A stretch of 64,000 nucleotides of DNA from an uncultured Clostridia bacterium. GTDB taxonomy: Bacteria > Bacillota_I > Bacilli_A > RF39 > UBA660. This document shows positions 10,294 through 55,875 of the stretch, piece by piece. A model generated the notes under the pieces. That model had not been told where the DNA came from, did no database searches, and worked only from the letters and a program-made list of their open reading frames with translations. Every line of letters begins with the position of its first letter. Position 1 is the stretch's first letter. The stretch is from contig CAMBUO010000003.1 in assembly GCA_945871105.1 (NCBI GenBank), positions 9,747 through 73,746 on the forward strand. Reading direction: 5' to 3'. Position numbers and translations under genes: made by a program.

Positions 10294-11547
10294 ATGAAAA
10301 TAGTAGCTTTAACCAAAGAAGAATTTGATAATTTTGCTTATCATCATAAATATAGTACTTATTATCAAACATCAGCTTATGCCGAAACTTCACGTTATGA
10401 AGGATTAAATACTTTTTATATTGGTTTTGTTCAAGATAACGAGTTAGTAGGAGTTACTTTATTTTTACATAAAACTATTTATTTATATTATAAATATGCT
10501 TATGCTCCAAGAGGATTCTTAATTGATTATACAGATAAAAAATTAGTAAAAAACGTAACAATGGGACTTATTAATTTATTAAAAAAGCAACATTATGCTT
10601 TTATTAAAATAGATCCACCAATTATTTGTAGTGAAAGAGATAATAAAGGTAATATTATTTATTTTAGTAATACTATTAATGATATTTTACAAACTTTTAA
10701 AGATAATCATTATATACATATGGGTTTTAATAAATATTTTGAAAATTATAAACCTCGATTAAATGTTTTTCTTAATTTAAATAGTGATATAAAAAAGATA
10801 TATGATAATATTAAAAAGGAAGCTAGAGATAAAATAGAAGAAAGTGTTGAATCAGGATTAGAAATATCTATTGATAAAACTGGTAATATTGATGAATTAT
10901 ATAAATATATTGGAACTAAAAATAAAAAAAGAAGGAAAAGATATTATCAGGGAATGTATAGTAATTTTTCTCGTAATAATGCTATGGATATTTTCTTTAT
11001 CAATGTTAATACGGATAAGTATTTAAATAATATGAAAAAGCATTATGATATTGAAGCTATTAAAAATGATGAATTAGCTAATTTTGTTCAAGACTTAAGT
11101 ATTACGGGATCAGAAAAACAAAGAATTATTAATGATAAAATGAAATCAGATGAGAGGTTAAATCATTATAAGAATGAATTAATTTATGCTACTAATTTAT
11201 CAAGAAATTATCCAGATTATGTAACAATTGGTGCAGGATTTACCATTAAACATAATAATGGAGTTGATTTAATAATAGATAGTTATTTAGAAGAATATTT
11301 AAGGTTTAATCCTCGTTATGTATTTATTTGGGAACTTATAAAAAAATATAAAAATGAAGGATTTATGTATATTAATTTAAATGCTGTAGTAGGTGATTTT
11401 TCAAAGACAAATTTAGGTAAATATCAATCCTTAAATGATCCTAAACTAAGTTTTCCTTCAACTGTTATTGAGTATATAGGTGAATATGATTTAGTTATTA
11501 ATGAAAGGATTTATCATAAATATAAAGAACAATTAGAAAAAAAATAG
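10294..11547 (+). CDS. FemAB-family peptidoglycan interpeptide-bridge aminoacyltransferase
   Basis: Size (~417 aa), N-terminus (MKIVALTKEEFDNF...YYQTSAYAE) and a central coiled-coil insert are typical of FemA/FemX/MurM. The start is placed at the ATG after GAAAGGG; the ORF-track start is 10240. Confidence 0.75.
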   Translation: MKIVALTKEEFDNFAYHHKYSTYYQTSAYAETSRYEGLNTFYIGFVQDNELVGVTLFLHKTIYLYYKYAYAPRGFLIDYTDKKLVKNVTMGLINLLKKQHYAFIKIDPPIICSERDNKGNIIYFSNTINDILQTFKDNHYIHMGFNKYFENYKPRLNVFLNLNSDIKKIYDNIKKEARDKIEESVESGLEISIDKTGNIDELYKYIGTKNKKRRKRYYQGMYSNFSRNNAMDIFFINVNTDKYLNNMKKHYDIEAIKNDELANFVQDLSITGSEKQRIINDKMKSDERLNHYKNELIYATNLSRNYPDYVTIGAGFTIKHNNGVDLIIDSYLEEYLRFNPRYVFIWELIKKYKNEGFMYINLNAVVGDFSKTNLGKYQSLNDPKLSFPSTVIEYIGEYDLVINERIYHKYKEQLEKK

Positions 11548-11566: not shown

Positions 11567-12329
11567 AATTTATGACGTATTCTAATCTTAATTTATCAGC
11601 AACCGTTATAATAAATTCTGAATTAGTTGGTTTAGCTTTATCAATATCAACACTATAACCAAATATTTCTTGCATATAATCCCAATTACCGCGATTCCAA
11701 CTAACTTCAATAGCATGTCTTATTGATCTTTCAACTCGTGAGACAGTTGTATTAAATTCTTCAGCAATTTTGGGATATAATTCTTTCGTAATAGCTCCTA
11801 CCATATCAGGATGAAATAATATTTCACTTATGCTTTCTCGAATATAAGAATATCCTTTGATATGAGAAGGAACTCCTAATTCATGTAACACTTTAGTTAT
11901 AGCAATTTGTAAATTATTATGATATAAATCTAAAGTCTTAGAACTAGAATTAATAATATTAGTTGATTCTAAAATTTTCTTTTCAAGTTCAGGTAATTCA
12001 AATGGCTTTAGCATAAAATAATTAACATTCATACTAGCAACTTTTCTAATTACTTCAGGGGTATTATACGATGTTAAAACAATTATTTTTGGTAAATTTT
12101 CAATATCTTTAACATCTTCTAAAACAGAAATACCATCTTTTTTAGGCATGATTAAATCTAAAATAATTAAATCATAATTGCCTAAGTTTTCTTTGATTAG
12201 TTTAACACCATCAATTCCATCATGGGCAACATAATCAATCGAGATTACTGCGTGACTACTAAAATACTCCTTTACCATATCAACGAGTCCAATATTATCG
12301 TCGATCATAAGTACTCTAATTTTGTTCAT
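11565..12329 (-). CDS. spo0A: Sporulation master regulator Spo0A (receiver + Spo0A_C DNA-binding domain)
   Basis: The receiver domain has DDN...[10 protein letters not shown]. The C-terminal region carries the Spo0A signature [12 protein letters not shown] ... [22 protein letters not shown]. Confidence 0.9.
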
Positions 12330-12426
12330 AATAATCCTTTCTTATTACTGCACGCACTACCTTACTTTCTAATTATATAATAATCTACAATTTTTTTAAA
12401 GACCTTTTTTTGTCATCTTTTGTCGT

Positions 12427-13131
12427 TTACTTAATTTTATCAATTAATTCTAAAAACTTATTGGGATTTAAAGTAGCTCCACCAATTAAATAACCATCAA
12501 GATTATTAATCTTATTTAATTCAAGAATATTATCAAGATTAACACTTCCACCATAAATAACTTTTAAATTAATCTGATAATTTTCATTTATATAATTTTT
12601 AATAAAACTAATTATTTCTGTAAGAATATCATTCGTAGGAATTTTACCAGTTCCAATTGACCAAATCGGTTCATAAGCAATGATAATTTTATCACTTCTA
12701 TTATCTTTTAAAGCGATATCAATTTGTTCTTTTAATTTATCTTTAGTTAAATTATTTTCATATTCTCTCAAGGATTCTCCAATACAAAGAACGGGGATAA
12801 TATCATTTTTTAAAGCTAATTTCATTTTATCAGCAATATAGTTATCATCATTAAAATATTTTCTTCTTTCTGAATGTCCTATTAAAGTATATTTAATACC
12901 AAGTTCTTTTAATTGTAAAATAGAAGTATCGCCTGTAACAGCACCAAATTCTTGAAATGATATATTTTGACTACCAACGAGATAATTATTCTTAGCAAAA
13001 TTTTCTATATATAAATCACTTGGAAAAAAGATAATATTATCAATTGGAAATTTATTTTTTATAACTTCTAAGTAGTTATTAATATCATCTTTTTTGAAAT
13101 TCATTTTAAAATTAGCACCTATTATTTTCAT
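12427..13131 (-). CDS. tpiA: Triosephosphate isomerase
   Basis: GANFKMN, GHSERR, AYEPIWSIGTG, YGGSV and GGA motifs. Confidence 0.92.
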   Translation of the reverse strand: MKIIGANFKMNFKKDDINNYLEVIKNKFPIDNIIFFPSDLYIENFAKNNYLVGSQNISFQEFGAVTGDTSILQLKELGIKYTLIGHSERRKYFNDDNYIADKMKLALKNDIIPVLCIGESLREYENNLTKDKLKEQIDIALKDNRSDKIIIAYEPIWSIGTGKIPTNDILTEIISFIKNYINENYQINLKVIYGGSVNLDNILELNKINNLDGYLIGGATLNPNKFLELIDKIK

Positions 13132-33466: not shown

Positions 33467-34309
33467 TTATTTATTAAATTTTATAATCCGAAAATTACAA
33501 TTTTTACAAAGATTACAAGTTAATTTATTATCCTTAAATCCTTGATTAAGGTTTAAAAATAATTCACTTTTTAAAACATCTTCTAATTCATCTTCAAAAA
33601 TATTACCAAGTTTTAGAATACCTTTACTATCTAAACAACAAGGAACAATATCACCATTTACTAAAATAGCAATATGACTTCTAGTACCAAGACAAGTTCC
33701 TTTATCTAAGATGCTATCTTGAATATTATCTGGCCATTTAAATTCATTATCTTTATCTAAATAAATATTATCTTTAATTTTAATATTTTTTTCCTTTATA
33801 ACTTTATTTATAAAAGATTTATCCAACTTATAATGTGATATTAAGTTATCCACAATTATTGTGGATAACTTATCTAACTTATAATTATCTAATAACCAAA
33901 TACGATAAACAATGGGAATATCTTTTGCTAAGATATCACAAGTATTGAAAACATCGGTAAAGTAGTTTACTAAATTATTTTCACAGTGCAAAGAAACATT
34001 AATTTGTTTAATATTTGTAAATTTTTGTAAAATATTTAACTTACTTTTTAGTAAAGTACCATTAGTAGTTATTTTAACTTTATAATTATATTTTTCAGTT
34101 AATTCAAGTATTTCTAAGAGTTTACTATGTAATAAAGGCTCTCCTTTAATATGTAAATATATAGTATTAGTATATTGTCTAATTTTCTTTAAAATAATGT
34201 CAAATTCTTGTAAAGATAATTCTTTTTTTAAACGGTTATCTTTAGAACAAAAGGAACAGTTTAAATTACAAATATTAGTAATTTCTATATAGATTTTAGA
34301 AAATCTCAT
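33467..34309 (-). CDS. Radical SAM protein with C-terminal Cys-rich (SPASM/twitch-like) region
   Basis: The CNLNCSFC segment is a CxxxCxxC cluster. The C-terminal region has PCCLD ... CNLCKNC. An ATGA overlap links it to the uvrB stop. Confidence 0.8.
33842..33872. repeat. 31-bp perfect palindrome made of two inverted consensus DnaA boxes, inside the radical SAM CDS
   Basis: The sequence is taagTTATCCACAat t atTGTGGATAActta, with 15-bp arms and a 1-nt centre. Degenerate copies ttatccaac (33820 region) and ttatctaac (33871 region) flank it. Confidence 0.85.
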
Positions 34310-36258
34310 AGTTCTCCTTTCATTTCAAATAAAATATCTCTTAATTCCATAGCTCTTTCAAAATCAAGTTCTTTAGCAGCTTGTTTCATTTCTTCTTCGA
34401 TTTTTTGAATAGTATCTATTTTTTCTTTTTTAGTTAATTTAGGAGTTTTTTTATCTTTTGAATCATCTAAATTACTAATTAAATCACGAATTTCTTTAAC
34501 AATTGTTTTTGGAATAATACCATGTTCTTGATTATATTTTTCTTGAATAAGACGACGTCTAGCCGTTTCTTTGATGGCATAGTCCATACTATCAGTTATT
34601 TTATCTCCGTAAAGAATAACATGTCCATGTTCATTTCTAGCACATCTACCAATAGTTTGAATTAAACTACGACTACTTCTTAAAAATCCTTCTTTATCAG
34701 CATCTAAAATAGCAATTAAAGATACTTCCGGAATATCAAGTCCTTCTCTTAAAAGGTTAATACCAACTAATACATCATAGGTACCAAGTCTTAAATCACG
34801 AATAATTTTCATTCTTTCTAAAGTTTTAATTTCTGAATGTAAATAAGCAACTTTAATATCTAATTGTTTTAAATAATTAGTTAATTCTTCAGCCATTCTA
34901 ATGGTTAAAGTCGTGACTAAAACTCTTTCATTTTTATTAATCCGATCGTTTATCTCTCCAACTAAGTCATCAATTTGACCTTCCGTTTTTCTTACTTCAA
35001 TCGTTGGATCAAGTAATCCTGTTGGACGAATAATTTGTTCAATATATTTATTATTAGTTAACTCAAGTTCGTAATCACCAGGAGTGGCTGACACATATAT
35101 AACCTGATTAACTTTTTTTTCAAATTCTTCAAACTTTAAAGGACGATTATCAAGGGCACTTGGTAGGCGAAAGCCAAAGTCAACTAAATTCATCTTCCTA
35201 GCTCTATCACCATTATACATACCTCTTATCTGAGGAACAGTTACATGGCTTTCATCAATAACTAAAAGAAAATCTTTCTTAAAAAAATCAAGTAAGCAAG
35301 TAGGGGTTTCACCTTCTTTTTTTAAAGCTAAATGACGGGAATAATTTTCAATTCCATGACAAAAACCAGTTTCAGCTAACATTTCCATATCATAGTTAGT
35401 TCTTTCTTTAATTCTTTCAGCTTCAAGTGGTTTATTATTATCTAAAAAATATTTAATTCTTTCATTTAATTCTTCTTTAATATTTAAAATAGCTAATTGT
35501 AATTTTTCATCATTAGTTACAAAGTGACTAGCAGGGAAGATAGTAATACTTTTTTTATTTGTTATAATTGCTCCAGTTAAAGTATCGATTTCACTTATTC
35601 TATCTATATCATCTCCAAAAAATTCAATTCTAATTCCATGAGTATGCTCATTAGCAGGAATTATTTCTAAAGTATCTCCACGAACTCTAAAAGTTCCACG
35701 TTTAAAATCAAATTCATTTCTTTCATATAACATATCCACAAGTTTTAACATAATTTTATTACGATCAACTGTATCTCCAACGTTTAAAGTAATCGTTTTA
35801 TTACGATATTCTTCAACTTCTCCAATACCATAAATACAAGAAACACTAGCAACAACAATTACATCATCACGTGATAATAAAGCACTAGTTGCTGAATGAC
35901 GAAGTTCATCAATTTCATCATTTATTTTAGCATCTTTTTCAATATAAGTATCACTTGATGGTACATAAGCTTCAGGTTGATAATAATCATAATAAGAAAC
36001 AAAATATTCAACTCTATTATTAGGAAATAATTCTTTAAGTTCAGAATAAAGTTGACCAGCAAGTGTTTTATTATGAGCAAGTACTAAAGTCTGTTTACCA
36101 GTTTCTTTAATAACATTAGCAATAGTAAAAGTTTTACCAGTTCCAGTTGCACCTAATAATACTTGATGTTTAACACCATCATTAACCCCTTTAATTAATT
36201 TATTAATGGCTTCTGGTTGATCACCACTTGGTTTAAATTTAGAAACTAATTCAAACAT
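34306..36258 (-). CDS. uvrB: Excinuclease ABC subunit B
   Basis: [17 protein letters not shown], Walker [13 protein letters not shown], and a C-terminal UVR motif ([12 protein letters not shown]). The ORF-track GTG start is at 36267. Confidence 0.96.
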
Positions 36259-36421
36259 TTTTATCACTCATCCTTTAATTTTATAAAATATGATATCACA
36301 AACTATTGAAATTATGAATACTTTTAACTAAACAACTACTAATATATATTTTTTAACCTCTAATAATTAATATTATTGTATATTTAATAACATATTATAA
36401 TCACTTAAAAATTTATAATTT

Positions 36422-37225
36422 TTAGTATCTATTAAAAAAATTTCTTAAAAAAAATTCTATTCCATCTTCATTACATGATTTTGTTTTATAAGGAGCAATT
36501 TTTTTAACATCTTCAATAGCATTTTCCATTGCAACTCCATATTTGCTTTTTTCAATCATTTCAATATCATTATAATTATCACCAAAAGATATTGTATTTT
36601 TAATATTTATTTTCTCTAATCTTAAAATATATTTTATTGCTTGAAATTTAGAAACATTTTTTCTTACTATTTCTAACCATCTAATTTCATTATCTTCATT
36701 TTTCATTTCAAATGCATGTAAATTTTTAAATTTATTATTTATTTCATTAATTATTTTATAATTATTTTGATAATTAAATAACTTTATAGTTGAATGAATA
36801 ATATTATTATTTTTTATAAATTCTTTTATATCTTCAATATTTCTAGATAAACCATAATAGTTTAGATCATTTTTTGTATATTTATAGTAGTAATGTTCAT
36901 CAGAAAATTCTATATATTCAAAATTATCATCATACAAATTGATTAATGATTTTATATTTTCTTTACTTAATTTTTTCTTATAGATTATTTTTTTGTTTTT
37001 TATGTCATAAATGATACTTCCTGAATCAGTTATCATATAGTTAATAAAATTTAATTTTGATACAATTTCATAGCACGTATCATATATTCTTCCTGATGCT
37101 ATTACAATAATATGACCATTATCATATAATTTTTTTAAATAATTCTTTGTTCTTGTTGATATTTTTTTATCATAATTTAACAATGTGTTATCTAAATCTA
37201 ATGAAATTACATATCTATTATTCAT
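36422..37225 (-). CDS. Cof-type HAD-IIB phosphatase
   Basis: Motif I is SLDLDNTLL and motif IV is GDNYNDIEM. It overlaps the upstream gene by 8 nt. Confidence 0.85.
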   Translation of the reverse strand: MNNRYVISLDLDNTLLNYDKKISTRTKNYLKKLYDNGHIIVIASGRIYDTCYEIVSKLNFINYMITDSGSIIYDIKNKKIIYKKKLSKENIKSLINLYDDNFEYIEFSDEHYYYKYTKNDLNYYGLSRNIEDIKEFIKNNNIIHSTIKLFNYQNNYKIINEINNKFKNLHAFEMKNEDNEIRWLEIVRKNVSKFQAIKYILRLEKINIKNTISFGDNYNDIEMIEKSKYGVAMENAIEDVKKIAPYKTKSCNEDGIEFFLRNFFNRY

Positions 37226-37898
37226 TATTTATGTCCTTTTTAAAATTGGAAGAATTATGTATAAAAGGAGTTCCTTTATAAAATAGGCAGTATTCTTTAT
37301 TTCCTATAATACGAATTTTTTTATCTGTAATAACTATAACATCTTCTTCTGGTAAAAAAATTAATTTATTCATTTTACTATATTCTTTTAAATAATTTTC
37401 ATTTAATTTCAAGTTACTTTTATTAAAATGACATAAGAGTGAATAATTATTTAGAAAATTCAATCCTTTTGTATCTATATCTATTTTTTTATCTGTTAAT
37501 AAACATCCATCAATATCTTTTCCAAATATTATTGCACCCGCACTTCCACCATAAACAATACCATCATTTAATAAAAAATTTTTAATTTTTTCTAAATTAG
37601 AATTTTCTTGTAATTCTTTCAACAATTTATATGTATTGCCACCTCCTATAAATAATGAACTATAATTATTTAAATTCAATTTTGATAGTTCTATACTGGA
37701 TGTTACCATTTCAAAATTAGTAAAATTAAAATATTCAATCTCTTTTTTAAACCATTTATAACATTCGTTATACTTATTACAATTTAAAGCGAGCGGTATA
37801 TATAGAATTGGCTTGTTTTTATTTATACTTTTAAAAAAATTAATGTAGGCATAAAGGTTTTGTTTGCCAGATCCTCCGCCTGATAGATATAATTTCAT
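37218..37898 (-). CDS. Peptidase E / S51 family (class I glutamine-amidotransferase-like fold) protein
   Basis: IGGGNTYKLLKEL and the GGSAGAIIFG nucleophile elbow. AAGGAG RBS. Confidence 0.7.
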   Translation of the reverse strand: MKLYLSGGGSGKQNLYAYINFFKSINKNKPILYIPLALNCNKYNECYKWFKKEIEYFNFTNFEMVTSSIELSKLNLNNYSSLFIGGGNTYKLLKELQENSNLEKIKNFLLNDGIVYGGSAGAIIFGKDIDGCLLTDKKIDIDTKGLNFLNNYSLLCHFNKSNLKLNENYLKEYSKMNKLIFLPEEDVIVITDKKIRIIGNKEYCLFYKGTPFIHNSSNFKKDINNE

Positions 37899-37909
37899 TT
37901 AATTTCTCC

Positions 37910-38884
37910 TTATCTAATTATTTTTTTTATTCTTTCTTTCGGAACACCACTTGAGGATAATCTTTTTTGCATTTCATTCCAAGGTATATTTATATTTATT
38001 CCAGCCACTTTATATCCTTCATTTACAAGCATATTAATGATATTTGAGTTACAATTTCTTTCATATTCATTTTCTATTATAGAAAAATCAAAAGCATCAG
38101 ATATTTTTTGCCAATCTTGCCAATACAAAATACATTCTTTAAAGTATTTTAAATCTTCAACTTTTAATTTACTTGATGACAATAAATCAGCTAATTTTTT
38201 TGAAAATAGTCTTGCTCGATAACCACTATTTTTTTGTGATGGTTTTACACCACATATAGCAAGCAATGTTATAGCGGAAATAAGTCCTTTTTCAGATGAT
38301 GATAGTTTATCAGAATCACTAAATAAATTAAAATATGATTTATTTCCATTAATACACCATCTAATCCTTTCAATGCCAAAACCCAAATCACACATCGAAT
38401 CAATTTTTTCATTATCTATACGTGTAAAAAAAGTTGTATCTCCTATTTCAATATTATTATAATAATAAAATGTTCTATTACCTGATAAATTTATATTATT
38501 CCATTTATCCTCATAAAAATCACAACATGAAGTTAAATTTCTTTTTTCTAATCCAAGTTGATAGAAAAAATCCAACCAATCTTTTATTAATTTTAAATAT
38601 TCGTTTTCTGATAAATTAAATTTTGCAGTTGTACTATTTATAAATGCTAATGATGTACCTTCAGATAATACATCTAAATATTGTGTTCTAATAACTGGTT
38701 GAGCAATAAATAAATTTTTTTTATCTTCCAATTCATCATTTAAATAACTATTTAAAAGTGGTTGAATTCCTGCACTATAAAAAACTGTATCTTTATTATT
38801 TACAATTGGAAATGGATTAACAATATGATAATCCATTTCCTTAAAATAATTATATATATCTTTTGAAAATAAAATATTTTTCAT
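37910..38884 (-). CDS. Stand-alone alanyl-tRNA-synthetase catalytic-core paralogue (no tRNA-binding, editing or C-Ala domains)
   Basis: By-eye alignment to the E. coli AlaRS N-terminal domain gives FYSAGIQPL vs FTNAGMNQF, QPVIRT vs QRCVRA, DLGFGIERI vs DTGMGLERI, and KNSGYRARL vs ENRGYVLRR. The protein is only 324 aa. Confidence 0.7.
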   Translation of the reverse strand: MKNILFSKDIYNYFKEMDYHIVNPFPIVNNKDTVFYSAGIQPLLNSYLNDELEDKKNLFIAQPVIRTQYLDVLSEGTSLAFINSTTAKFNLSENEYLKLIKDWLDFFYQLGLEKRNLTSCCDFYEDKWNNINLSGNRTFYYYNNIEIGDTTFFTRIDNEKIDSMCDLGFGIERIRWCINGNKSYFNLFSDSDKLSSSEKGLISAITLLAICGVKPSQKNSGYRARLFSKKLADLLSSSKLKVEDLKYFKECILYWQDWQKISDAFDFSIIENEYERNCNSNIINMLVNEGYKVAGININIPWNEMQKRLSSSGVPKERIKKIIR

Positions 38885-38901
38885 AATCCCTCGTCATACA
38901 A

Positions 38902-40155
38902 TTAATAATTATTCACTTTTATTGCTTGATTAATTATTTTTTTAGTTATCTCATAATGCTTATTTAGTTGTTTTATAACAAGATTATTTATTTCCTCTTT
39001 TATTTCATTTGTAATTTCTTGGTTTAATTCTATACTTATATTCCATGGATTTTGAATGCTATCTCCCATTCTTGAAGTACAATAGACAATATTTTCTAAA
39101 TTGTATTTATCATAAATCATTTTGCTAATTTGATCTCCAAGTGCAGTGAATAGTTTTCCTGTATGATATACAGGATTTTTTCCACAAGATGCTTCCATAC
39201 TAAAATGTCTACTAAAGGGTATTACACCACGAGATCGATTTCCTCTTCCAACAGCTCCTTCGTCTCCACTTTCTACAGCACTACCTATTAGCGTCATATA
39301 CATATCATTATTTTTATAATTATCTCGAGTGTTTAAAAATATTTCAATTGGATTATTCGTAAAGTGGTTTAAAATTATGTTATAAATATCTTTTTTTATT
39401 AAATTTAATTTGTTTATATAGTCATCTATATTTTTAACATATAAAGAGATTAATGGTACACATGCAGTAATTTCGATTTTTTTATCTTTTCGCATTCCCA
39501 TTATTTTAATATCATTTCCAGTCCATGGATATTTGTTTTTATATTCCTTAGAATTTAATGTCATTTCTATTTCTAAAACTGTTTTTTCTAATTCACTCAT
39601 TGGATAGTAACTAACCGTTGTAGAAGTATCATTGCATCGAAAGTGATTATTATGTCTACTAAAATCTGTTTTATTAACTACTTCAAAAAATTTTTTTCTT
39701 TCATTTTTAGTTGTATCTTTATCATTATAAACAACTCCAGGTCCTTCATTATGATGAGTGTTATCAACTATTTCTAAATATTTTTCGATATTAAGTAAAG
39801 GAAACAATTCTTTAAAATAATCTTTTATTGTTTTTGTTATTATTGACATGTAATCAATTTTTTCATTTTTAAAACGATCAGTAAATCTTCCATTAACTAA
39901 AACTTTTATTGGTGCAATCATTTCACCACCACCAAATTTTACTTTGGAACCTCCTCCTATGATAGATAATTTATCTATCATATGTCTTAAAATAACGCCA
40001 TAATGTTTCAAGCAATATTGTGAATATGTTGCAGAAATTTTTTCTGATAATGTGTCACAAATATTATCAGGATGTCCTTTTCCTTTTGTTTCAACTACTT
40101 CAAATAAAGTATCATCAATATTAATTTTTTTGTTTACATAAATAAAAGTCTCCAT
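38902..40155 (-). CDS. Archaeal-type methionine adenosyltransferase (SAM synthetase, PF01941-like)
   Basis: It resembles the Methanocaldococcus MAT along its full length by eye: ETKGKGHPDNICD, KFGGGEMIAPIKVLVNGR, CNDTS, GNDIKIMGMRKDKKIEIT, GDEGAVGRGNRSRG and SMEASCGKNPVYHTGK. GGAGG RBS. Confidence 0.8.
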   Translation of the reverse strand: METFIYVNKKINIDDTLFEVVETKGKGHPDNICDTLSEKISATYSQYCLKHYGVILRHMIDKLSIIGGGSKVKFGGGEMIAPIKVLVNGRFTDRFKNEKIDYMSIITKTIKDYFKELFPLLNIEKYLEIVDNTHHNEGPGVVYNDKDTTKNERKKFFEVVNKTDFSRHNNHFRCNDTSTTVSYYPMSELEKTVLEIEMTLNSKEYKNKYPWTGNDIKIMGMRKDKKIEITACVPLISLYVKNIDDYINKLNLIKKDIYNIILNHFTNNPIEIFLNTRDNYKNNDMYMTLIGSAVESGDEGAVGRGNRSRGVIPFSRHFSMEASCGKNPVYHTGKLFTALGDQISKMIYDKYNLENIVYCTSRMGDSIQNPWNISIELNQEITNEIKEEINNLVIKQLNKHYEITKKIINQAIKVNNY

Positions 40156-40350
40156 ATTTTTTCCTCCAAATATACTATTATTATATAATATGTATTAAAA
40201 AAAGTCTATGGCAATCGCTTAAAGATAGTGTAGAAAAGTTTCAGAAAATAAAAAAATGAAATAAGTGTTCTAATCCAAAAAGTACTTAACTCAATAATAC
40301 TTAAACTTAATTTAAATTGACACAACTTTATTCTTTTAAAATATACAATA

Positions 40351-40376
40351 AAAAAAACGCTATTTTGCGTCTTTTT
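40351..40376 (-). terminator. Weak hairpin terminator after the four-gene orphan operon
   Basis: On the minus strand the sequence is aaaagacgc aaaata gcgtttttt. It has a short GC core with one G-U pair, and the U-tract is shared with the stem. Confidence 0.35.
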
Positions 40377-40486
40377 AGCATGTAATTAAAAAGTAGAAAA
40401 ATTTTTATTTTGGATATAAAATAATTTTTTTCAATTTTAATTCATAATTTTTAGTAAAATTTATTCTATTTTACTGATAATTTAAA

Positions 40487-40723
40487 TTATATCTCATCTA
40501 AATTATCTATAATTAACTTAACTTCATCTAAATTTTTAAAAAATAAATCAGTTTTATTAATCAATAAATCTTTTATATCTAACTTTTTACTCTTTAAATA
40601 ATTAATAATTTCTAAACATTCATCTTGATTACAATTAAGATTAAATGCTTCTGAACCTTTAATATTTTCTTTAACTATTTTTAAATCTTCTTCATCTAAA
40701 TAATCTTTTAAAAAATCTAACAT
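40487..40723 (-). CDS. Hypothetical 78-aa helical protein (single helical-repeat unit resembling those in the upstream 579-aa protein)
   Basis: It starts 9 nt after the upstream stop. The segment ECLEIINYLKSKKLDIKDLLINKTDLFFKNLDEVKLIIDNL echoes repeats in the neighbouring gene. Confidence 0.5.
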   Translation of the reverse strand: MLDFLKDYLDEEDLKIVKENIKGSEAFNLNCNQDECLEIINYLKSKKLDIKDLLINKTDLFFKNLDEVKLIIDNLDEI

Positions 40724-40732
40724 TTAATCACC

Positions 40733-42472
40733 TTACATTCTTTTAATATTTTGAAATATATTTTCAACAACAGTTTCTATTTTTTCATATTCTTCTTTAG
40801 TTAAAAAACTATTTTTTGTAATTGCATACATAAGCATATCTTTACTTTCATTCATACCATTATAAATTAAAGTAGTCATATATCTTAAAACTTTATATCT
40901 TGAAATTAATACACCATCTATATTATAAGCTCTTACTTGTTTTGAACTATATTCTTTATCTAAAATTTTGATTGAATTTAGTTGATTGATAAAATCAAAA
41001 GCAATTGTATTATTATCACTTTTTTTAACTATTTCATCGAATATTTGTTCTAATTCCGAAGGTTCTTTATGATAAACATTAAGTTCTTGATAATTATCTT
41101 TATTAACATCTGAATATGTTTTATCATCATAAGTTATAGTACTAGGTAATTGAATCCCTTTTTTAGTATCTTTATAAAGAGAAGAAATATCAATACCATT
41201 TTCTCTTGCTTTAAACAATTTATAAAACATTAAAGAATTCTTTTTTATACAAGCCCTTGACATATTACTAGTAACATAATCAAAAGCATTAAATTCGATA
41301 AAAATATCCAAGATATCTAATTGATTATGATTAGCAAAGGCACTTAAAGTATCACGATAATATTTAGGAGTAATACCATATAAATCAAAGTTTTTTAAAC
41401 TCTTTTTAATTGAATCATGAGGTTTTTCAAAATAAAAGGCACTTTTTTGATAAGCTTTTTCAATATCAACGCCAATCGAACTAAATAATTCTAAATTCTT
41501 TTTAAAATCTTCATAACCACCTATATTTTCATCATCTTTATTATTCGTTGTTTTTTTATCATCAGTATTTCTCATTAACCATTTTCTTTTTCGAGGAATA
41601 AATTTAGCTGGTCTTTTAAAGAAATCATCAAGAAATTCAGAAATATTTAGATTATATTTTTGATAAGTTTTAATGACACTTTCAACTATTTCAGGTTTAG
41701 AATAGATAAATATTCTACTAATAGCTAATTGATAGTTATTAAATATTTCGGTAGAAAATAAATTATATTGTTTTAAAGTTAAAATAATTTGTTCAATATT
41801 TTCTAAATTACCATAAGTTTCTAATTCGGACTTAGCCGTACTTTTAATATCTTGATAATTAATTCCATATTTTTGAAATAATTTTTCTAAATCTTCTTTA
41901 GTAATATTAGTTTTATTAAGAACTTCAATTTCCTCATCTTTATTAGTTATTAATTTCTGTAAAGTTTTTAAAGCTAGATATTTCATTATTTCGATGCCTT
42001 CTCTTAAATGATTATCTTCAATTATAATATTTTTTAATAATTCCATATCTTTATCATCTAAATTATAAGTTTCTACTTTTTTAATTAATATTTCTAAATT
42101 TTTAATTTGTTTTTCTATAACTAAACTTTCTTCTTTATTTAAATTATTTTGTATTTCTTGGTTATAATTTATTTCTTTATCAAAAAGACTATTAAGTTTT
42201 TCTAAATCACTTTCTTGTAAACTATATCCTTGTTTAAGAACAATTTGATAAAAATTTAATAATTCTAAAGATAAATTATCAAGATTTTTAAAAGTATTTT
42301 TGATATTTAAATCTTTAAGTTTTAATATATCAGCTTTAATATCTAATAGAGTATTTATAATATCTTGTTGTTTATCATATTGTTTTTGATAATTTTTTTG
42401 AATATTTTCTTGTTCTTTTTTTAAATTTTTAATATTTTTAGTAAGTATATCCTTAATCATTTTATCGTACAT
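40733..42472 (-). CDS. Hypothetical 579-aa protein: N-terminal coiled coil + helical repeats (mTERF-like pattern)
   Basis: The GGAGG RBS overlaps the stop of the upstream gene. Recurrent units include LFQKYGINYQDIK, LKQYNLFSTEIF, YQKYNLNISEFL, LFSSIGVDIEKAY and LKNFDLYGITPKYY. No catalytic motif was recognised. Confidence 0.6.
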   Translation of the reverse strand: MYDKMIKDILTKNIKNLKKEQENIQKNYQKQYDKQQDIINTLLDIKADILKLKDLNIKNTFKNLDNLSLELLNFYQIVLKQGYSLQESDLEKLNSLFDKEINYNQEIQNNLNKEESLVIEKQIKNLEILIKKVETYNLDDKDMELLKNIIIEDNHLREGIEIMKYLALKTLQKLITNKDEEIEVLNKTNITKEDLEKLFQKYGINYQDIKSTAKSELETYGNLENIEQIILTLKQYNLFSTEIFNNYQLAISRIFIYSKPEIVESVIKTYQKYNLNISEFLDDFFKRPAKFIPRKRKWLMRNTDDKKTTNNKDDENIGGYEDFKKNLELFSSIGVDIEKAYQKSAFYFEKPHDSIKKSLKNFDLYGITPKYYRDTLSAFANHNQLDILDIFIEFNAFDYVTSNMSRACIKKNSLMFYKLFKARENGIDISSLYKDTKKGIQLPSTITYDDKTYSDVNKDNYQELNVYHKEPSELEQIFDEIVKKSDNNTIAFDFINQLNSIKILDKEYSSKQVRAYNIDGVLISRYKVLRYMTTLIYNGMNESKDMLMYAITKNSFLTKEEYEKIETVVENIFQNIKRM

Positions 42473-42486
42473 AATTATTACCTCCA

Positions 42487-44193
42487 TTAAATATCTTTTT
42501 CTTTTTCTTTAGTTAGTTGATAACATTTTTCCATACTTTCATTGATAATATCTTGTAATACTTTTTTATCAGTTTTTGGATCTTGAAATAAAGCTTTTAT
42601 TTTTTGAATATATGATTTAGTTTGATATAATCCAGCATTTAAATTATCATATTCATTATGGGATGCATCAGTCCAAGTAACAGAGAAAAATAATACTATC
42701 CGACCATTTCCATTATTAACAAAGTGTTGATTATGATATAACTCAGCTATTTTTTGCATATTTTCTTCACAAGTAGGAATAATTAAATAGCCAGTTCTTC
42801 CATAATTAGTATTACGAATTCTATATGGTGAAAGTTCTTTATCATATAATTTGGTTTTTATATTTTTATAAAGTTTATCTGTATTAGAATGTATTCTTAT
42901 GTTATCAGCATAACCTTGTTTAGTAAATAAATTAATAGCTTCTCGTAACTCATTTTGTTTAATTAATTGTTTATCAGTATCATCAGAGATTAAATCTTGA
43001 TCAATATAAAAATCTTCTTGCTCTAATTCTTTACTAAATAATATTATGTTGGTGCTGTTAGCAATAAAATCTTCAAAATCTTGGTTATTAGGTTCTAATA
43101 TTTCTATTTCTTGATTTCTAGTTTCATTATAAATTAAAACTTTCTTTTGATATTCTTCAAGTTTATTTTGAAGTTCACTTATTAAATCATCAATTATTTC
43201 AGCATCAGCTTCAAATTCTAAATAATATTCTAAATCTTTTAAACAAGGAATAATAATACTTAAAGTTTTAATTTCTTCCATATTTAAATGAGGATTAGCT
43301 TGTTCAATACTTAAAAAATCACCGTTCATTAAATAATGTTTAATCCCATCATTAAAACTATTATAAATATTTAAAATAGTTTGATGTTCTCTTAAAATTG
43401 TTATAGCTTTATCTTGTAAAGTTTTTAAAATCTCTAATTTTTTTGAATAATTATCTTTTTCTTCTTGTTCTTTAGCATTTCTTGATTCTATCAATATTTC
43501 TAAAGTTTCATCTTCTTCTGTGCTTATACTATCTAATTCTTTTATTACAATTTGTTCATTACTTTCTGTTTGACTTATTAAATCATGAATATTTTCTCTT
43601 GTAATAGGACTTTCTTCTTCAACTTTATGATTTTTAATACTATGATAACCTTTTTGACTAATCAAAGTAACTAATTCTAGTTTTTCAACTAAAGTAGCAT
43701 CTAAAAGTTCAATTAAATCCATGAATTCTGTTATTTCAGTTAAATTTAGTGAAAATTCATTTTCTAAATTATCTAAATAATTTTTTAATTTAGTATATTT
43801 AGTAATAATATCTTCTAATTCTTTAATTTGCTTATTTAATAATTCTTGTTTTTCCTTTTGCTTTGTTTTAATTTTTAATTTAAAATTATCTAATTTATCT
43901 AAAATAACTTTTTTAATACCAGTTTCTTCTATATTAGGATTACTTAAAAACGGAGCTAATTCTTTAATTGAATTAAGAAAACTTAAATCAGTTTCTACTT
44001 CTTTTTCTGCTTCTATTAATAACAAATTATCTTTATAATTATCAATATTTATATTTAATAAATCTGTATCTAAAGAATTTAAAAAATTATCAAGTTCATT
44101 TACTTTTAATAACACATTTTTTAATTTTAATAAATTAACTTTTTCATCAAGTATTTTTTTAACTTGATTAATATAATTACTTAAATTTATCAT
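42487..44193 (-). CDS. Hypothetical 568-aa protein: long coiled coil, acidic middle, distinct C-terminal alpha/beta domain
   Basis: The start ATG (MINLSNY) follows AAAGGTAAG and overlaps the upstream gene by 17 nt. The C-terminal domain contains PYRIRNTNYGRTGYLIIP...GRIVLFFSV. There is no Walker A. Confidence 0.6.
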   Translation of the reverse strand: MINLSNYINQVKKILDEKVNLLKLKNVLLKVNELDNFLNSLDTDLLNINIDNYKDNLLLIEAEKEVETDLSFLNSIKELAPFLSNPNIEETGIKKVILDKLDNFKLKIKTKQKEKQELLNKQIKELEDIITKYTKLKNYLDNLENEFSLNLTEITEFMDLIELLDATLVEKLELVTLISQKGYHSIKNHKVEEESPITRENIHDLISQTESNEQIVIKELDSISTEEDETLEILIESRNAKEQEEKDNYSKKLEILKTLQDKAITILREHQTILNIYNSFNDGIKHYLMNGDFLSIEQANPHLNMEEIKTLSIIIPCLKDLEYYLEFEADAEIIDDLISELQNKLEEYQKKVLIYNETRNQEIEILEPNNQDFEDFIANSTNIILFSKELEQEDFYIDQDLISDDTDKQLIKQNELREAINLFTKQGYADNIRIHSNTDKLYKNIKTKLYDKELSPYRIRNTNYGRTGYLIIPTCEENMQKIAELYHNQHFVNNGNGRIVLFFSVTWTDASHNEYDNLNAGLYQTKSYIQKIKALFQDPKTDKKVLQDIINESMEKCYQLTKEKEKDI

Positions 44194-44731
44194 TTTTCTT
44201 ACCTTTCTTTTTAATACCAATATTAATATTTTTATTAATAGGTATATAGTCTATTTTTTCATTATATGTTAGGGATAAATTACGATATTTTTCAATAAAG
44301 AAAAGATAAGCAGTATATAAAAAAGTTATATTCATATCAAGAATTAATTGAATTGTTATAATAATTTTTTTTACATATAAAATAGATTCAGGGTTATTAA
44401 GAAAATTTTTATCATTAATGAGATTATATATTTGTATTATGTAATTATAAGCTAATGCTTTTTTAGAACTAGAACAATTTTGATATTTTTCTTTTATTTT
44501 TATTATTTCTAATTTTATACGATCAAATTCTGTTAATACTTGATTATTAGTTGTATATATTTTATCTTCTAAAGCATTTATTTTCTTTTGATTATTGATT
44601 ATATCTCCTTTAGTATAGTCATATAATTTTTTATAGTTTTTATAAAGCTTTATTAAATAGTTTACTTCACTAGAAGGGATATTAGTTTTCGTTATATATT
44701 TAAGAAAATCTTTATTATTAAATTCATCCAT
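44177..44731 (-). CDS. Hypothetical 184-aa protein (first gene of the orphan operon)
   Basis: GGAGGA RBS. A coiled-coil N-terminal half is followed by one hydrophobic segment (ITFLYTAYLFFI) and a basic tail. Confidence 0.55.
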   Translation of the reverse strand: MDEFNNKDFLKYITKTNIPSSEVNYLIKLYKNYKKLYDYTKGDIINNQKKINALEDKIYTTNNQVLTEFDRIKLEIIKIKEKYQNCSSSKKALAYNYIIQIYNLINDKNFLNNPESILYVKKIIITIQLILDMNITFLYTAYLFFIEKYRNLSLTYNEKIDYIPINKNINIGIKKKGKKNDKFK

Positions 44732-53369: not shown

Positions 53370-54491
53370 TTAGTTTAAATATTTTTTTAGTATATTTACT
53401 TTATTTAATTGTTCCCAAGGTAAGTAATTTTTACCAAAATGGGAATAGTTAGTAGTATCTTGGTATTTAATGTTTTTTAAATTTAATTCTTTTATCATAT
53501 TATTTGGAGAAAAGTTAAAGTTTTCTTTTATTATTTCTAATATTTTTTCATTTGGTAATTTATTAGTATTAAAAGTATTTATATTTAAAGATATTTCTTT
53601 TGGTATTCCGATAGCATAGGAAACTTGTAATTCTATTTTTTTAGCAAGACCGGCTGCTACAATATTTTTACAAACATATCTAGCATAATAACTTGCTGTT
53701 CTATCAACCTTGGTATAATCTTTACCAGAAAAAGCACCGCCTCCATGTTTTGAAAATCCAGAATAGGTATCAATTATTATTTTTCTTCCAGTTAAACCTG
53801 TATCAGCTACTGGCCCACCTAAAATAAATCTTCCAGTTGGATTAATTAATATTTTTGTTTTATTATCTATTAAATTACTTGGTATTACTTTTTTTATTAT
53901 ATTTTCTTTTATATCTTTTTTAATTATATCTATATCTATATCATCAGTTTGAATAGATATAACAATAGTATCAATTCTTATTAATTTATTATTTTCATAT
54001 TCAGTTGTTATTTGACATTTACCATCTGGTCTTAAGTAACTTAAATTAGTATTATCTAAAGCTTTAGCTAAATTATTAACTAATATTTGAGTAGTAGGTA
54101 AGTAATATTCATTTTCATCAGTTGCATAGCCAAACATAATACCTTGATCACCGGCACCTAATTCTTTTTGATTAACACCTTGACTAATATCTGGAGATTG
54201 TTTAGTAATATGAATATCTATTTTTAAATTATTACCATTATAATTTAACTTATCATCATTGTAACCAATCTCTATTATTTTCTTTCTAACTAAACTTTCT
54301 AAATCTGGTTTACCTTTTGAAGTAACTTCACCGGAAATGAATATTCCTTCTTTATAAGCCATAACTTCAACAGCAACTCTGGAATCCTTATCTTCTTCTA
54401 AATAAGCATCCAAAATAGCATCACTTAATAAATCACATATTTTATCTGGATGACCCTTTCTTACACATTCACTTGTAAATAAATTTTTCAT
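53370..54491 (-). CDS. metK: S-adenosylmethionine synthase (bacterial MetK type)
   Basis: FTSECVRKGHPDKICD, GAGDQGIMFGYA, GGGAFSGKD and DRTASYYAR. Confidence 0.96.
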   Translation of the reverse strand: MKNLFTSECVRKGHPDKICDLLSDAILDAYLEEDKDSRVAVEVMAYKEGIFISGEVTSKGKPDLESLVRKKIIEIGYNDDKLNYNGNNLKIDIHITKQSPDISQGVNQKELGAGDQGIMFGYATDENEYYLPTTQILVNNLAKALDNTNLSYLRPDGKCQITTEYENNKLIRIDTIVISIQTDDIDIDIIKKDIKENIIKKVIPSNLIDNKTKILINPTGRFILGGPVADTGLTGRKIIIDTYSGFSKHGGGAFSGKDYTKVDRTASYYARYVCKNIVAAGLAKKIELQVSYAIGIPKEISLNINTFNTNKLPNEKILEIIKENFNFSPNNMIKELNLKNIKYQDTTNYSHFGKNYLPWEQLNKVNILKKYLN

Positions 54492-54512: not shown

Positions 54513-54632
54513 AAAAGAAAAAAACTTAGGCATATCCTAAGTTAGATATCCTTATCCATCAGGGTTTAGCACCTAATTTAATAGGTTGCTGGATTTCCTA
54601 GGGCCTGTCCCTCCATCTCTCTTTATAAGGTT
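54513..54632 (-). promoter_or_regulatory. SAM-I (S-box) riboswitch with intrinsic terminator in the metK leader
   Basis: The minus-strand aptamer is CTTATAAAGAGAGATGGAGGGACAGGCCCTAGGAAATCCAGCAACCTATTAAATTAGGTGCTAAACCCTGATGGATAAGG (54550..54630). The terminator is aacttagg/cctaagtt followed by a U-run (54513..54543). Confidence 0.9.
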
Positions 54633-54671: not shown

Positions 54672-55793
54672 TCAATTACTTTTTAATTCTTTTATGGTTT
54701 TCAAAACAAATTCATTTATTTCATCTAATTTAGATTCTATATCTTGTAATAAAATATATTGATTTAAAAATCTATCTTTATTATGTTCTTTATATTTTAT
54801 TTTAAAATAAGTATCTCCATTTATATAATCAGTTAAAAAACGAAGAACTAATTCATAAGTTAAAATTTTAATCGATAGACCAATATAATTAATTTCCTCT
54901 TGAGTTAAAATATTATGAGTTTCTTCTAAAAATCCTTTTAAATAAGCCTTTGTTAAATCTAAATTTAAATAGATTTTATCTTTATCAATTTCATCTTCAA
55001 AAGAATTACTACAAGTAGATCTTATACCATCTCCAATATCAAATAAAATAGATCCAGGCATTACGGTATCTAAATCAATAATAGCAATACCTATATTTGT
55101 ATTTTTATTCATTAAAATATTATTTAACTTTGTATCATTATGGGTAACTCTAATAGGAATACTTTTTCCTAAATTATCAATTATTATACTACATTCTTTA
55201 ATTTTAGAAATTAAATCAATTATTTCTTTAGAAAAATCATAAGCTCTATTAGTTACTTTATTTTCTATACTATCTAAAAAATCTTGAAAACGTTTTTTAG
55301 TATTATGAAAATCTTTAATTGTTTCACTTAATAAATTACAAGGAAAATCATTCAATAAATTTTGAAAATTACCAAAACTTTTACCTGCTTCATAAGCAAG
55401 TTTTAAAGCATCTTGACATTTTTCAAAAGAATCATAACTAGTACAATCTTCTATAAAATCAAAAGCTCGATAATATTCTTTTTCTCCATCTGAATTAATA
55501 TATGTATACATATTTTCATTATTAATAGTTTTAATAATATTTAAAGTTTTATGAGTATTATCTTTTAAATTCTTTAATTTCTTTTTAATATGTTTAGTTA
55601 CAAGTTCAATATTTTTCATAACTAAATAAGGTTCTGTAAAAACATTAGAATTTATTTTTTGTAATAAATATTTATTATGATCATAGGTTAAGATATATGT
55701 TTTATTAATATTACCTTGATTATTTTCTTCAATATTAATTAAATTTCCTTTAAATTTAAAATTGTTTGCAATTTCTTTTACTTTTTTATTCAT
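54672..55793 (-). CDS. APH-fold phosphotransferase (N-acetylhexosamine-1-kinase-like)
   Basis: Catalytic loop RVTHNDTKLNNILM and metal-binding IDLDTVMPGSILFDIGD. The ORF-track alternative start is at 55805. Confidence 0.65.
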   Translation of the reverse strand: MNKKVKEIANNFKFKGNLINIEENNQGNINKTYILTYDHNKYLLQKINSNVFTEPYLVMKNIELVTKHIKKKLKNLKDNTHKTLNIIKTINNENMYTYINSDGEKEYYRAFDFIEDCTSYDSFEKCQDALKLAYEAGKSFGNFQNLLNDFPCNLLSETIKDFHNTKKRFQDFLDSIENKVTNRAYDFSKEIIDLISKIKECSIIIDNLGKSIPIRVTHNDTKLNNILMNKNTNIGIAIIDLDTVMPGSILFDIGDGIRSTCSNSFEDEIDKDKIYLNLDLTKAYLKGFLEETHNILTQEEINYIGLSIKILTYELVLRFLTDYINGDTYFKIKYKEHNKDRFLNQYILLQDIESKLDEINEFVLKTIKELKSN

Positions 55794-55875
55794 CTTTATC
55801 ACCAAAGTTATTATATTGAAAAATAAAAAAAAGTCTACCTTTTTTATAAATATATGTTATAATTATAAATGTCTT

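Follow-up and report, generated by a model that had tools for sequence, protein, structure and literature searches.

The 64,000-nt window analysed here (NCBI GenBank assembly GCA_945871105.1, contig CAMBUO010000003.1, positions 9,747 to 73,746 of the forward strand) comes from an uncultured Clostridia bacterium and has a G+C content of about 23%. It carries an operon of four open reading frames (ORFs) on the minus strand, all in the same direction. Gene 1 (38902-40155, 417 aa) encodes an archaeal-type methionine adenosyltransferase (MAT), gene 2 (37910-38884, 324 aa) a miniature paralogue of alanyl-tRNA synthetase (AlaRS), gene 3 (37218-37898, 226 aa) a PepE-like serine hydrolase of family S51, and gene 4 (36422-37225, 267 aa) a Cof-type HAD-IIB phosphatase. 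The first three form a conserved unit, referred to below as the cassette, and the HAD gene is a lineage-specific extra. Genes 1 and 2 are separated by 17 nt and genes 2 and 3 by 11 nt, genes 3 and 4 overlap by 8 nt, and a GGAGG-like (Shine-Dalgarno-like) ribosome binding site (RBS) precedes each ORF. The coordinates, spacings and RBSs of four tightly packed genes reported in a first-pass annotation, which had been made from the sequence alone, were all reproduced. The upstream gene is closed by a terminator-like hairpin with a 10-pair stem and a T-run (40351..40376, minus strand), which sets the 5' limit of the operon. A promoter-like -35/-10 pair (40180..40214, minus strand; TTGCCA-18-TATTAT or TAGACT-17-TATAAT) precedes the gene 1 RBS by about 25 nt; it is a consensus match only, such sites being no commoner in this region than in shuffled sequence. 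No terminator was predicted anywhere between gene 4 and uvrB.

The gene 1 protein matched PF01941 end to end (348 bits against a cutoff of 27, residues 9-410 of 417) and the solved archaeal MATs with E values from 2.5e-68 (TkMAT 4L4Q, phmmer) to 1.3e-63, in agreement with the archaeal-type identity first proposed. It is like the archaeal enzymes (TkMAT 4L4Q, MjMAT 7P83, SsMAT 4HPV) in the span of the PF01941 fold and in the catalytic set. Residue roles were those given for TkMAT (PMC3853416). The equivalents of His33 (catalytic, GHPD), Asp201 and Asp283 (ribose/amino), Tyr271 (adenine stacking) and Asn161 are kept in gene 1, as is the GRGNR phosphate-loop motif, and the equivalents of the catalytic and adenosine ligands were kept in 55 of 55 aligned sequences (the window protein and 54 metagenomic cassette MATs). 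However, several features set gene 1 apart from the archaeal MATs. Its best score against the NCBIfam archaeal MAT equivalogs was 307 bits, below every cutoff (435-577). The ligands of the methionine carboxylate are replaced, His62 of TkMAT by Arg57 and Asn64 by Met59, and the gating loop has 37 residues rather than 22, which makes it about 15 aa longer. It is also a bacterial protein whose gene always adjoins gene 2 and the S51 gene. The lengthened loop is common to all 54 cassette MATs aligned. The Arg/Met ('RHM') signature was found in all the Bacilli copies and in most copies from the candidate phyla radiation (CPR), and an 'HHN' subtype from CPR bacteria retains the canonical methionine-carboxylate ligands. 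The MAT subtypes (RHM, HHN and HHQ) were compared with the pocket of the mini-AlaRS and did not clearly co-vary with it.

Gene 1 is a second MAT, since a canonical bacterial metK (53370..54491, minus strand; S-AdoMet_synt N, M and C domains) lies 13 kb away in the same window under the control of an S-adenosylmethionine (SAM) riboswitch of the SAM-I class (54549..54631, minus strand; Rfam, 64 bits). This status had been missed in the first-pass annotation. The same pair of a riboswitch-controlled metK and a cassette MAT was found in a related genome (L004). No riboswitch or T-box was detected by Rfam in or before the operon, either at the gathering threshold or at E<=1 on positions 36200-40800, and none was detected before the cassette in 8 related loci; with no T-box there is no specifier codon to reveal an amino acid. 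The MAT is the most conserved of the three cassette proteins, with 67-82% identity among Bacilli compared with about 50% for gene 2. An APH-family phosphotransferase gene (54672-55805, minus strand) lies immediately upstream of the metK and its riboswitch, and an APH-like kinase gene also precedes the cassette MAT in the CPR loci L047-L052.

Gene 2 gave no Pfam match. The AlaRS models of NCBIfam reached only E values of about 5e-4, with 18 bits for alaS against cutoffs of 457-745, and a profile of 28 family sequences found nothing significant among PDB sequences (AlaRS at E=0.12). One CPR homologue passed PF01411 (35.4 bits against 30.3). An AlphaFold2 model built on the 28 homologues (pLDDT 90.3) was compared with the PDB by Foldseek, and AlaRS catalytic fragments were the best matches (E 4e-12 to 1e-8 and TMq 0.56-0.68 over about 420 aligned columns). 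The top 15 were all AlaRS (E 4e-12 to 5e-9), followed by the alpha subunit of GlyRS. The sequence of E. coli AlaRS 1-438 was checked against PDB 3HXU before alignment, and hhalign of a 102-sequence family profile to this protein gave a probability of 98.5% (E 1.7e-14) with a collinear alignment of residues 1-324 to AlaRS 2-413. The predicted fold and the profile alignment thus make a solid case for kinship to AlaRS.

The domain limits of AlaRS were taken from PMC12143591. Residues ~196-324 of gene 2 are collinear with the helical tRNA-recognition domain of AlaRS, including the PSNxxxGY motif and the position of YDTYGFP, and the protein ends at residue 324, which corresponds to about residue 413 of AlaRS, without the editing and C-Ala domains. 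Since gene 2 is collinear with the whole N-terminal fragment of AlaRS, the tRNA-recognition domain is present. The first-pass annotation had therefore been right in seeing a truncated AlaRS that lacks editing and C-Ala domains, but wrong in describing an aminoacylation core only, devoid of tRNA recognition. Gene 2 has the same fold and domain order as the AlaRS N-terminal fragment (E. coli 1-441; PDB 3HXU and others), but it is about 120 residues shorter through deleted loops and scores under every AlaRS family cutoff.

The equivalences of the core residues were obtained by hhalign of the 28-sequence alignment, and the roles of the AlaRS residues were taken from PMC12143591 and PMC6055181. R66 of gene 2 corresponds to R69 of E. 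coli AlaRS (alpha-phosphate ligand), F81 to F90 and R173 to R242 (both adenine stacking), D166 to D235 (alpha-amino ligand), and W128, E146 and G168 to W170, E209 and G237, respectively; these seven positions are conserved. In 59 very diverse members of the family, Q62, R66, F81, R173 and E273 were invariant, and D166, W128, G148, G168, G170 and E172 were conserved in at least 90%. The loss of ATP and amino-acid ligands, which had been raised earlier as the mark of a pseudoenzyme, was not found; with little or no variation at the positions of R69, F90, D235 and R242, gene 2 does not look like a pseudoenzyme by its sequence. Changes from the AlaRS fragment were seen at other positions. D149 replaces N212, and nearly every one of about 100 family sequences has Asp or Glu there. 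T151 stands at V214, the serine discriminator, a position that varies in the family (T, A, S, I, V, N). Of the two readers of the G3:U70 pair, the Asn303 equivalent is Gln217 in the window and Asn in most relatives, and Asp400 is replaced by Ser or Thr in the family (S311 in the window). The basic helix residues R225 and K229 are conserved in most members, and gene 2 is acidic to neutral (pI 5.5-6.7).

Gene 3 matched PF03575 (Peptidase_S51) with 75.8 bits (cutoff 23.9). S119 and H157 were invariant in 23 aligned homologues and E184, in the sequence LPEED, was present in every full-length homologue aligned, so that the Ser119-His157-Glu184 triad is kept and the S51 peptidase-like assignment stands. 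Gene 3 shares its fold family and the Ser-His-Glu triad with the S51 peptidases of known structure (PepE 1FY2; Lmo0363 3L4E), of which Lmo0363 is its nearest solved relative (E 1.4e-7). It differs from PepE in that it scores 46.5 bits against the PepE equivalog (Asp-X dipeptidase, NF003642), under the cutoff of 156, and in that it is fused to the mini-AlaRS in some lineages. A weak similarity to GATase_3 and PdxT was also seen, and by inspection the N-terminus is not signal-peptide-like. Gene 4 had been called a Cof HAD phosphatase, and this was borne out by its scores (Hydrolase_3, 188 bits; TIGR00099 for Cof, 161 bits with a cutoff of 137) and by the DLDNT and GDNYND motifs (DxDxT and GDxxND) visible in its translation.

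The conservation of the arrangement was followed across genomes. Gene 2 has 131 close relatives of 325-335 aa, none of which carries a functional name. Among 185,579 species genomes scanned, 22 loci were found, each of them with the MAT, gene 2 and S51 together. The carriers are uncultured Bacilli, 'Mollicutes' and 'Tenericutes' metagenome-assembled genomes, Mycoplasma sp. CAG:776, Candidatus Aphodocola and three Patescibacteria; the proteins of the three CPR loci are only 31-44% identical to those of the window. An exhaustive profile search for the gene 2 family yielded 383 clusters at 50% identity, mostly from Patescibacteria, and most of these proteins have 365-420 aa with an N-terminal extension, as in the form at the CPR loci. 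A metagenome scan added 80 further loci in 67 dereplicated groups, 27 of which had enough flanking sequence. The MAT and S51 adjoin gene 2 in 26 of these 27 groups, which are mostly Patescibacteria, the S51 being present, free or fused, at every such locus but one.

Two natural fusions were found. P0236 is a mini-AlaRS::S51 fusion that occurs on two independent JGI contigs, where a radical SAM gene and the MAT precede it. P0266 joins the mini-AlaRS to a glycosyltransferase (GT)-like protein, and its C-terminal half is 41% identical to the product of a free gene after S51 in L027; the gene order on its contig is radical SAM, MAT, S51, seryl-tRNA synthetase (SerRS), fusion. Because the three genes are adjacent across genomes and lineages and because fusions exist, the arrangement is far beyond chance, and the genes are supported as a functional unit. 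The idea that the operon works as one unit is upheld in this way for the first three genes, which are syntenic in every related genome retrieved, and not for the HAD. In 5 of about 20 Bacilli loci a Cof-type HAD gene follows the cassette at a distance of no more than about 2 kb, and in the window and L007 it adjoins the cassette directly; none stands beside the cassette in the three CPR genome loci (L025-L027). The HAD is therefore regarded as an accessory gene.

The strongest extra partner, SerRS, had been missed in the first-pass annotation, which left its set of partners incomplete. Neighbours were counted in the 23 metagenomic groups whose sequence reaches 1.5 kb or more past the core on each side. 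In 12 of these 23 groups SerRS lay no more than two genes from the core, and in 5 a GT-B-like gene did. The position of serS varies: it is divergent from gene 2, after the MAT, before the MAT, or between S51 and gene 2 (L028), and in three Bacilli loci it directly follows S51. All cassette-linked SerRS proteins score above the serS equivalog cutoff. The idea that the cassette SerRS is a special paralogue transferred together with the module was rejected, since all copies pass the equivalog, those of Bacilli share only 31-40% identity with those of CPR bacteria, and nothing pointed to a joint transfer. In the related uncultured Bacilli there are two SerRS types about 30% identical (L012:9663-10970, L014:9679-11013 and L024:9688-10989 on one side, L009:15269-16555 on the other), one of which is bacterial-type, and both pass the serS equivalog cutoff. 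The L009 protein scored 337.1 bits with Aquifex SerRS (2DQ3), its top match, and 336.5 bits with Pyrococcus horikoshii SerRS (2DQ0).

Other neighbours recur less widely. Directly upstream of the cassette in four Bacilli loci, with gaps of 12-22 nt, lies a gene for a short Rel protein (L004:5284-6717, L011:3170-4615, L012:5241-6686, L013:5275-6708) of about 480 aa with HD_4, RelA_SpoT and TGS domains, in which no ACT or other C-terminal regulatory domain was detected; these gaps suggest co-transcription of the cassette with a stringent-response enzyme. Genes related to tRNA are frequent neighbours (serS, other aminoacyl-tRNA synthetase (aaRS) genes, miaA, the CCA-adding enzyme and tRNA-Ser genes). 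Homologous radical SAM genes are translationally coupled to the MAT in two lineages (L028, L029), and a further radical SAM gene lies upstream of the MAT in L037. Methyltransferases and myo-inositol-1-phosphate synthase flank some CPR cassettes, and S66 (MccF-like) peptidases adjoin some cassettes.

No description of a module, pathway or defence system with this gene set was found in the searchable literature, and no PADLOC model was matched by the four operon proteins and four upstream ORFs (0/8), in line with what had been said of the operon at the outset. The closest parallel comes from the ascamycin pathway of Streptomyces sp. 80H647 (PMC12945691). In that pathway Ala-tRNA comes from an aaRS, AcmD. 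AcmF resembles a truncated AlaRS that has been reduced to the domains for aminoacylation and tRNA recognition, and it transfers alanyl from the tRNA to an adenosine sulfamate that occupies its nucleotide site. The alanyl group is taken off again by AcmE, which has an alpha/beta-hydrolase fold and as a hydrolase reverses the AcmF reaction. AcmF has lost most of the residues for activation of ATP and alanine, and carries N->Q and D->E changes (PMC12945691). Judged by this published description, gene 2 is like AcmF a truncated AlaRS with the aminoacylation and tRNA-recognition domains only. SerRS would then match AcmD, gene 2 AcmF and S51 AcmE, and the MAT would be the source of the adenosine-bearing partner. 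The two systems differ in that the partner aaRS is SerRS and not AlaRS, the hydrolase has the S51 fold instead of an alpha/beta-hydrolase one, a sulfonium (SAM) would take the place of the sulfamate as adenosine partner, and the hosts are gut Bacilli and CPR bacteria, as opposed to actinomycetes.

More distant parallels are the aaRS cores that act outside translation, namely MshC (the mycothiol Cys ligase), EpmA/PoxA, GluQRS, AsnA and HisZ. Like gene 2 they are co-encoded with pathway partners, which for MshC are a GT4 glycosyltransferase, a phosphatase and an amidohydrolase. Unlike gene 2, they do not descend from AlaRS, have neither a MAT nor an S51 hydrolase as a coupled partner, and lack an acceptor-stem recognition domain of this kind. 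The Rhizobium 'Alanine--tRNA ligase-related protein' (e.g., WP_138334269.1) is a stand-alone shortened AlaRS paralogue of about 300 aa, and hhalign placed it with the gene 2 family (97.4% probability, E 1.4e-11). It is nearer to true AlaRS (80 bits to TIGR00344), however, and in contrast to gene 2 it keeps the Asn212 equivalent (EIGN). A gene of this family, at 8872-9774 of L112 on the Rhizobium indicum plasmid pPR13E03, has no MAT, S51 or SerRS neighbours at this one locus examined, and 43 further Rhizobium replicons carry the family. We know of no function assigned to this protein. At L112 the gene adjoins toxin-antitoxin and ABC-transporter genes.

The analysis establishes which genes belong together, how widely they are conserved, that some are fused, which folds they have and that catalytic residues are kept, whereas the substrates, the product and the direction of each step are inferred. 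Since SerRS, mini-AlaRS, S51 and MAT map one to one on the logic of ascamycin, we favour, with a probability of roughly 35%, an ascamycin-like aminoacyl transfer, probably of a seryl or other small residue, which involves SAM or a derivative and is followed by hydrolytic reversal or processing. The adenosine-bearing partner would be SAM, or a compound much like it, made by the cassette MAT. The mini-AlaRS would bind this adenosine compound, or ATP, in its intact site for adenine and the alpha-amino acid, and would form an aminoacyl linkage with a small amino acid, for which serine is the best candidate. The linkage might arise through adenylation chemistry of the mini-AlaRS itself, or the aminoacyl group might be taken from an aminoacyl-tRNA held on the retained acceptor-stem domain, as in AcmF. 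The S51 hydrolase may then cleave the linkage, as AcmE does, for proofreading, recycling, release or self-protection, and the HAD, GT, radical SAM and methyltransferase genes could provide lineage-specific tailoring. The product suggested for the operon in the first-pass annotation, an aminoacyl- or adenosyl-containing small molecule, is plausible by this analogy and has now gained a precedent in AcmD, AcmF and AcmE.

Several observations weigh against such a metabolite. Gene 2, unlike AcmF, keeps the arginines of motifs 2 and 3 and the D235 equivalent, and only the N212 position is changed, to Asp or Glu. The position that the ascamycin sulfamate uses has no obvious nucleophile in SAM. No SerRS gene lies within the 64-kb window, and SerRS is absent from about half of the lineages; where it is present, its adjacency could partly reflect shared CPR ancestry. 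Genes for housekeeping and translation (rel, serS, uvrB and further aaRS genes) surround the module, and the genomes of many carriers are very small. A secreted antibiotic is disfavoured, since no exporter or regulator is conserved and the three proteins look cytosolic.

A tRNA-linked role is a serious rival to the aminoacyl transfer onto SAM. In one form, unlikely yet deserving attention, gene 2 would be a working mini-aaRS that attaches a small amino acid, or one derived from SAM/Met, to a tRNA or an acceptor resembling one, S51 would be a substitute editing module deacylating wrong or surplus products, and SerRS and tRNA-Ser would belong to a related pathway. The N-terminal AlaRS fragment is sufficient for charging tRNA-Ala and microhelices, and gene 2 is collinear with this charging-competent fragment. 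The conservation of R225, K229 and the Asn303 equivalent in most members and the frequent tRNA-related neighbours are consistent with such a role, and the order of the mini-AlaRS::S51 fusion (catalytic, tRNA-recognition, hydrolase) mirrors the aminoacylation, recognition and editing domains of AlaRS. Against it, Asp400, an essential reader of G3:U70, is now Ser or Thr, and the Asn303 equivalent is Gln in the window. Moreover, gene 2 is acidic to neutral, the MAT, which is always present, would be left without a role, and no dedicated tRNA gene belongs to the cassette (the tRNA genes in about 110 loci are scattered, some of them tRNA-Ser, and none is conserved). In another tRNA-linked scheme, which we consider quite improbable, the mini-AlaRS would make no adenylate and would instead bind SAM supplied by the MAT in the place of the aminoacyl-adenylate. 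With the acceptor-stem domain that it has kept, it would carry an aminoacyl group or a SAM-derived one (e.g., 3-amino-3-carboxypropyl) to a tRNA 3' end or away from it, for example that of Ser-tRNA(Ser), and S51 would be the eraser. SAM is nearly isosteric with an aminoacyl-adenylate, and in this scheme the change of Asn212 to Asp or Glu would neutralise the sulfonium.

The remaining explanations depart from the nucleoside or from new chemistry altogether. Improbable, in our judgement, is a ligase or amidotransferase that acts on a non-nucleoside scaffold, either adenylating an amino acid and coupling it to an amine or sugar, as MshC does for mycothiol, or amidating a carboxylate in the manner of AsnA. 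The GATase1-fold S51 would then serve as an amidohydrolase or a source of ammonia, the scaffold would be built by the GT-like protein, inositol-1-phosphate synthase and HAD, and the MAT would feed methylation or aminocarboxypropyl transfer. The P0266 fusion to a GT-B-like protein, the free GT-like gene after S51 in about 20% of lineages, the myo-inositol-1-phosphate synthase and methyltransferases flanking some CPR cassettes, a PIG-L deacetylase near the L004 cassette, the sugar-phosphatase-type Cof HAD in the window and the weak resemblance of S51 to GATase_3 and PdxT all point in this direction. But the GT, inositol-1-phosphate synthase, PIG-L and HAD genes are each found in a minority of loci, while the MAT is always present; the S51 nucleophile is Ser and not the Cys of glutamine amidotransferases; and the kept tRNA-recognition domain and the link to SerRS are left unaccounted for. 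An ordinary SAM supply, no more credible than SAM in the adenylate site, would make gene 1 a second, riboswitch-free SAM synthetase, gene 2 a ligand-sensing regulatory subunit and S51 a common peptidase supplying amino acids. Catalytic-core paralogues of aaRS are known as regulators, as HisZ is for HisG, and the housekeeping surroundings (rel, serS, uvrB) and the high conservation of the MAT relative to gene 2 fit this explanation. It accords poorly with the near-invariant catalytic ligands in about 100 gene 2 sequences and the conserved S51 triad, with the S51 and GT-like fusions, which point to consecutive chemistry, and with the cassette MATs being a subtype of their own that has a longer gating loop and mostly altered methionine-carboxylate ligands. 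Most improbable of all is an anti-phage defence or toxin that would deplete ATP, Met or SAM or form a toxic aminoacyl-nucleoside on infection, in which SerRS would be either its target or a copy resistant to it. Self-resistance through an aaRS encoded in the gene cluster is a known strategy (the albomycin SerRS), MccF-like S66 peptidases adjoin some cassettes, and a Shedu-type nuclease domain (SduA_C) and a helix-turn-helix gene occur near the L004 cassette. On the other side, PADLOC gave no match for the eight proteins, no relatives were found in 50,697 phage records, and plasmid records yielded only the distant stand-alone Rhizobium paralogue, which lacks the partner genes; most of the genes nearby serve housekeeping, and about 100 loci showed no recurrent pattern of a defence island.

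Each of the protein families is known, and their combination was not found described; the mini-AlaRS family, with at least 383 clusters at 50% identity, has no Pfam model. To our knowledge, AcmF is so far the only characterised AlaRS-derived protein with a non-translational role. If an aminoacyl-SAM-type metabolite is made, or if the module acts on tRNA, the family would be a new branch of the non-translational uses of the aaRS scaffold, and this would account for the persistence of an archaeal-type MAT in bacteria already equipped with MetK. SAM binding in place of the adenylate, if true, would mean a new tRNA-linked SAM chemistry or a new aminoacyl-tRNA species common to CPR and gut Bacilli. 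The module could reveal a conserved physiology or host interaction in ultra-small bacteria and uncultured gut Bacilli, and the link to SerRS offers a concrete handle on its function.

Some further genes were noted around the cassettes. Upstream of the operon, at 40487-44731 on the minus strand, are four consecutive ORFs of 78, 584, 577 and 184 aa without a Pfam or PADLOC match, which by eye seem rich in Lys, Glu and Asn and are possibly coiled-coil. Directly downstream, at 33467-36267 on the minus strand, uvrB overlaps a 280-aa radical SAM/SPASM gene by 4 nt, and this pair recurs in L007 and L014. The radical SAM/SPASM gene was considered as a member of the module and was not counted in it, since it has only the radical-SAM core motif in common with the MAT-coupled genes of L028 and L029. 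In L004, within 3 kb downstream of the cassette, the PIG-L deacetylase gene lies at 10438-11172 and the gene with the Shedu-type SduA_C nuclease domain at 12023-13060; the helix-turn-helix gene is also near. In the CPR locus L029 (13497-18977; same genes in L030), the stretch downstream of radical SAM, MAT and mini-AlaRS::S51 encodes a tandem pair of ProRS-like paralogues (409 and 389 aa, with 26% identity to each other), a methyltransferase, a 373-aa class IIb aaRS core without the anticodon-binding domain and an S66 (MccF/LdcA-like) peptidase, which makes this cluster unusually dense in aaRS paralogues.

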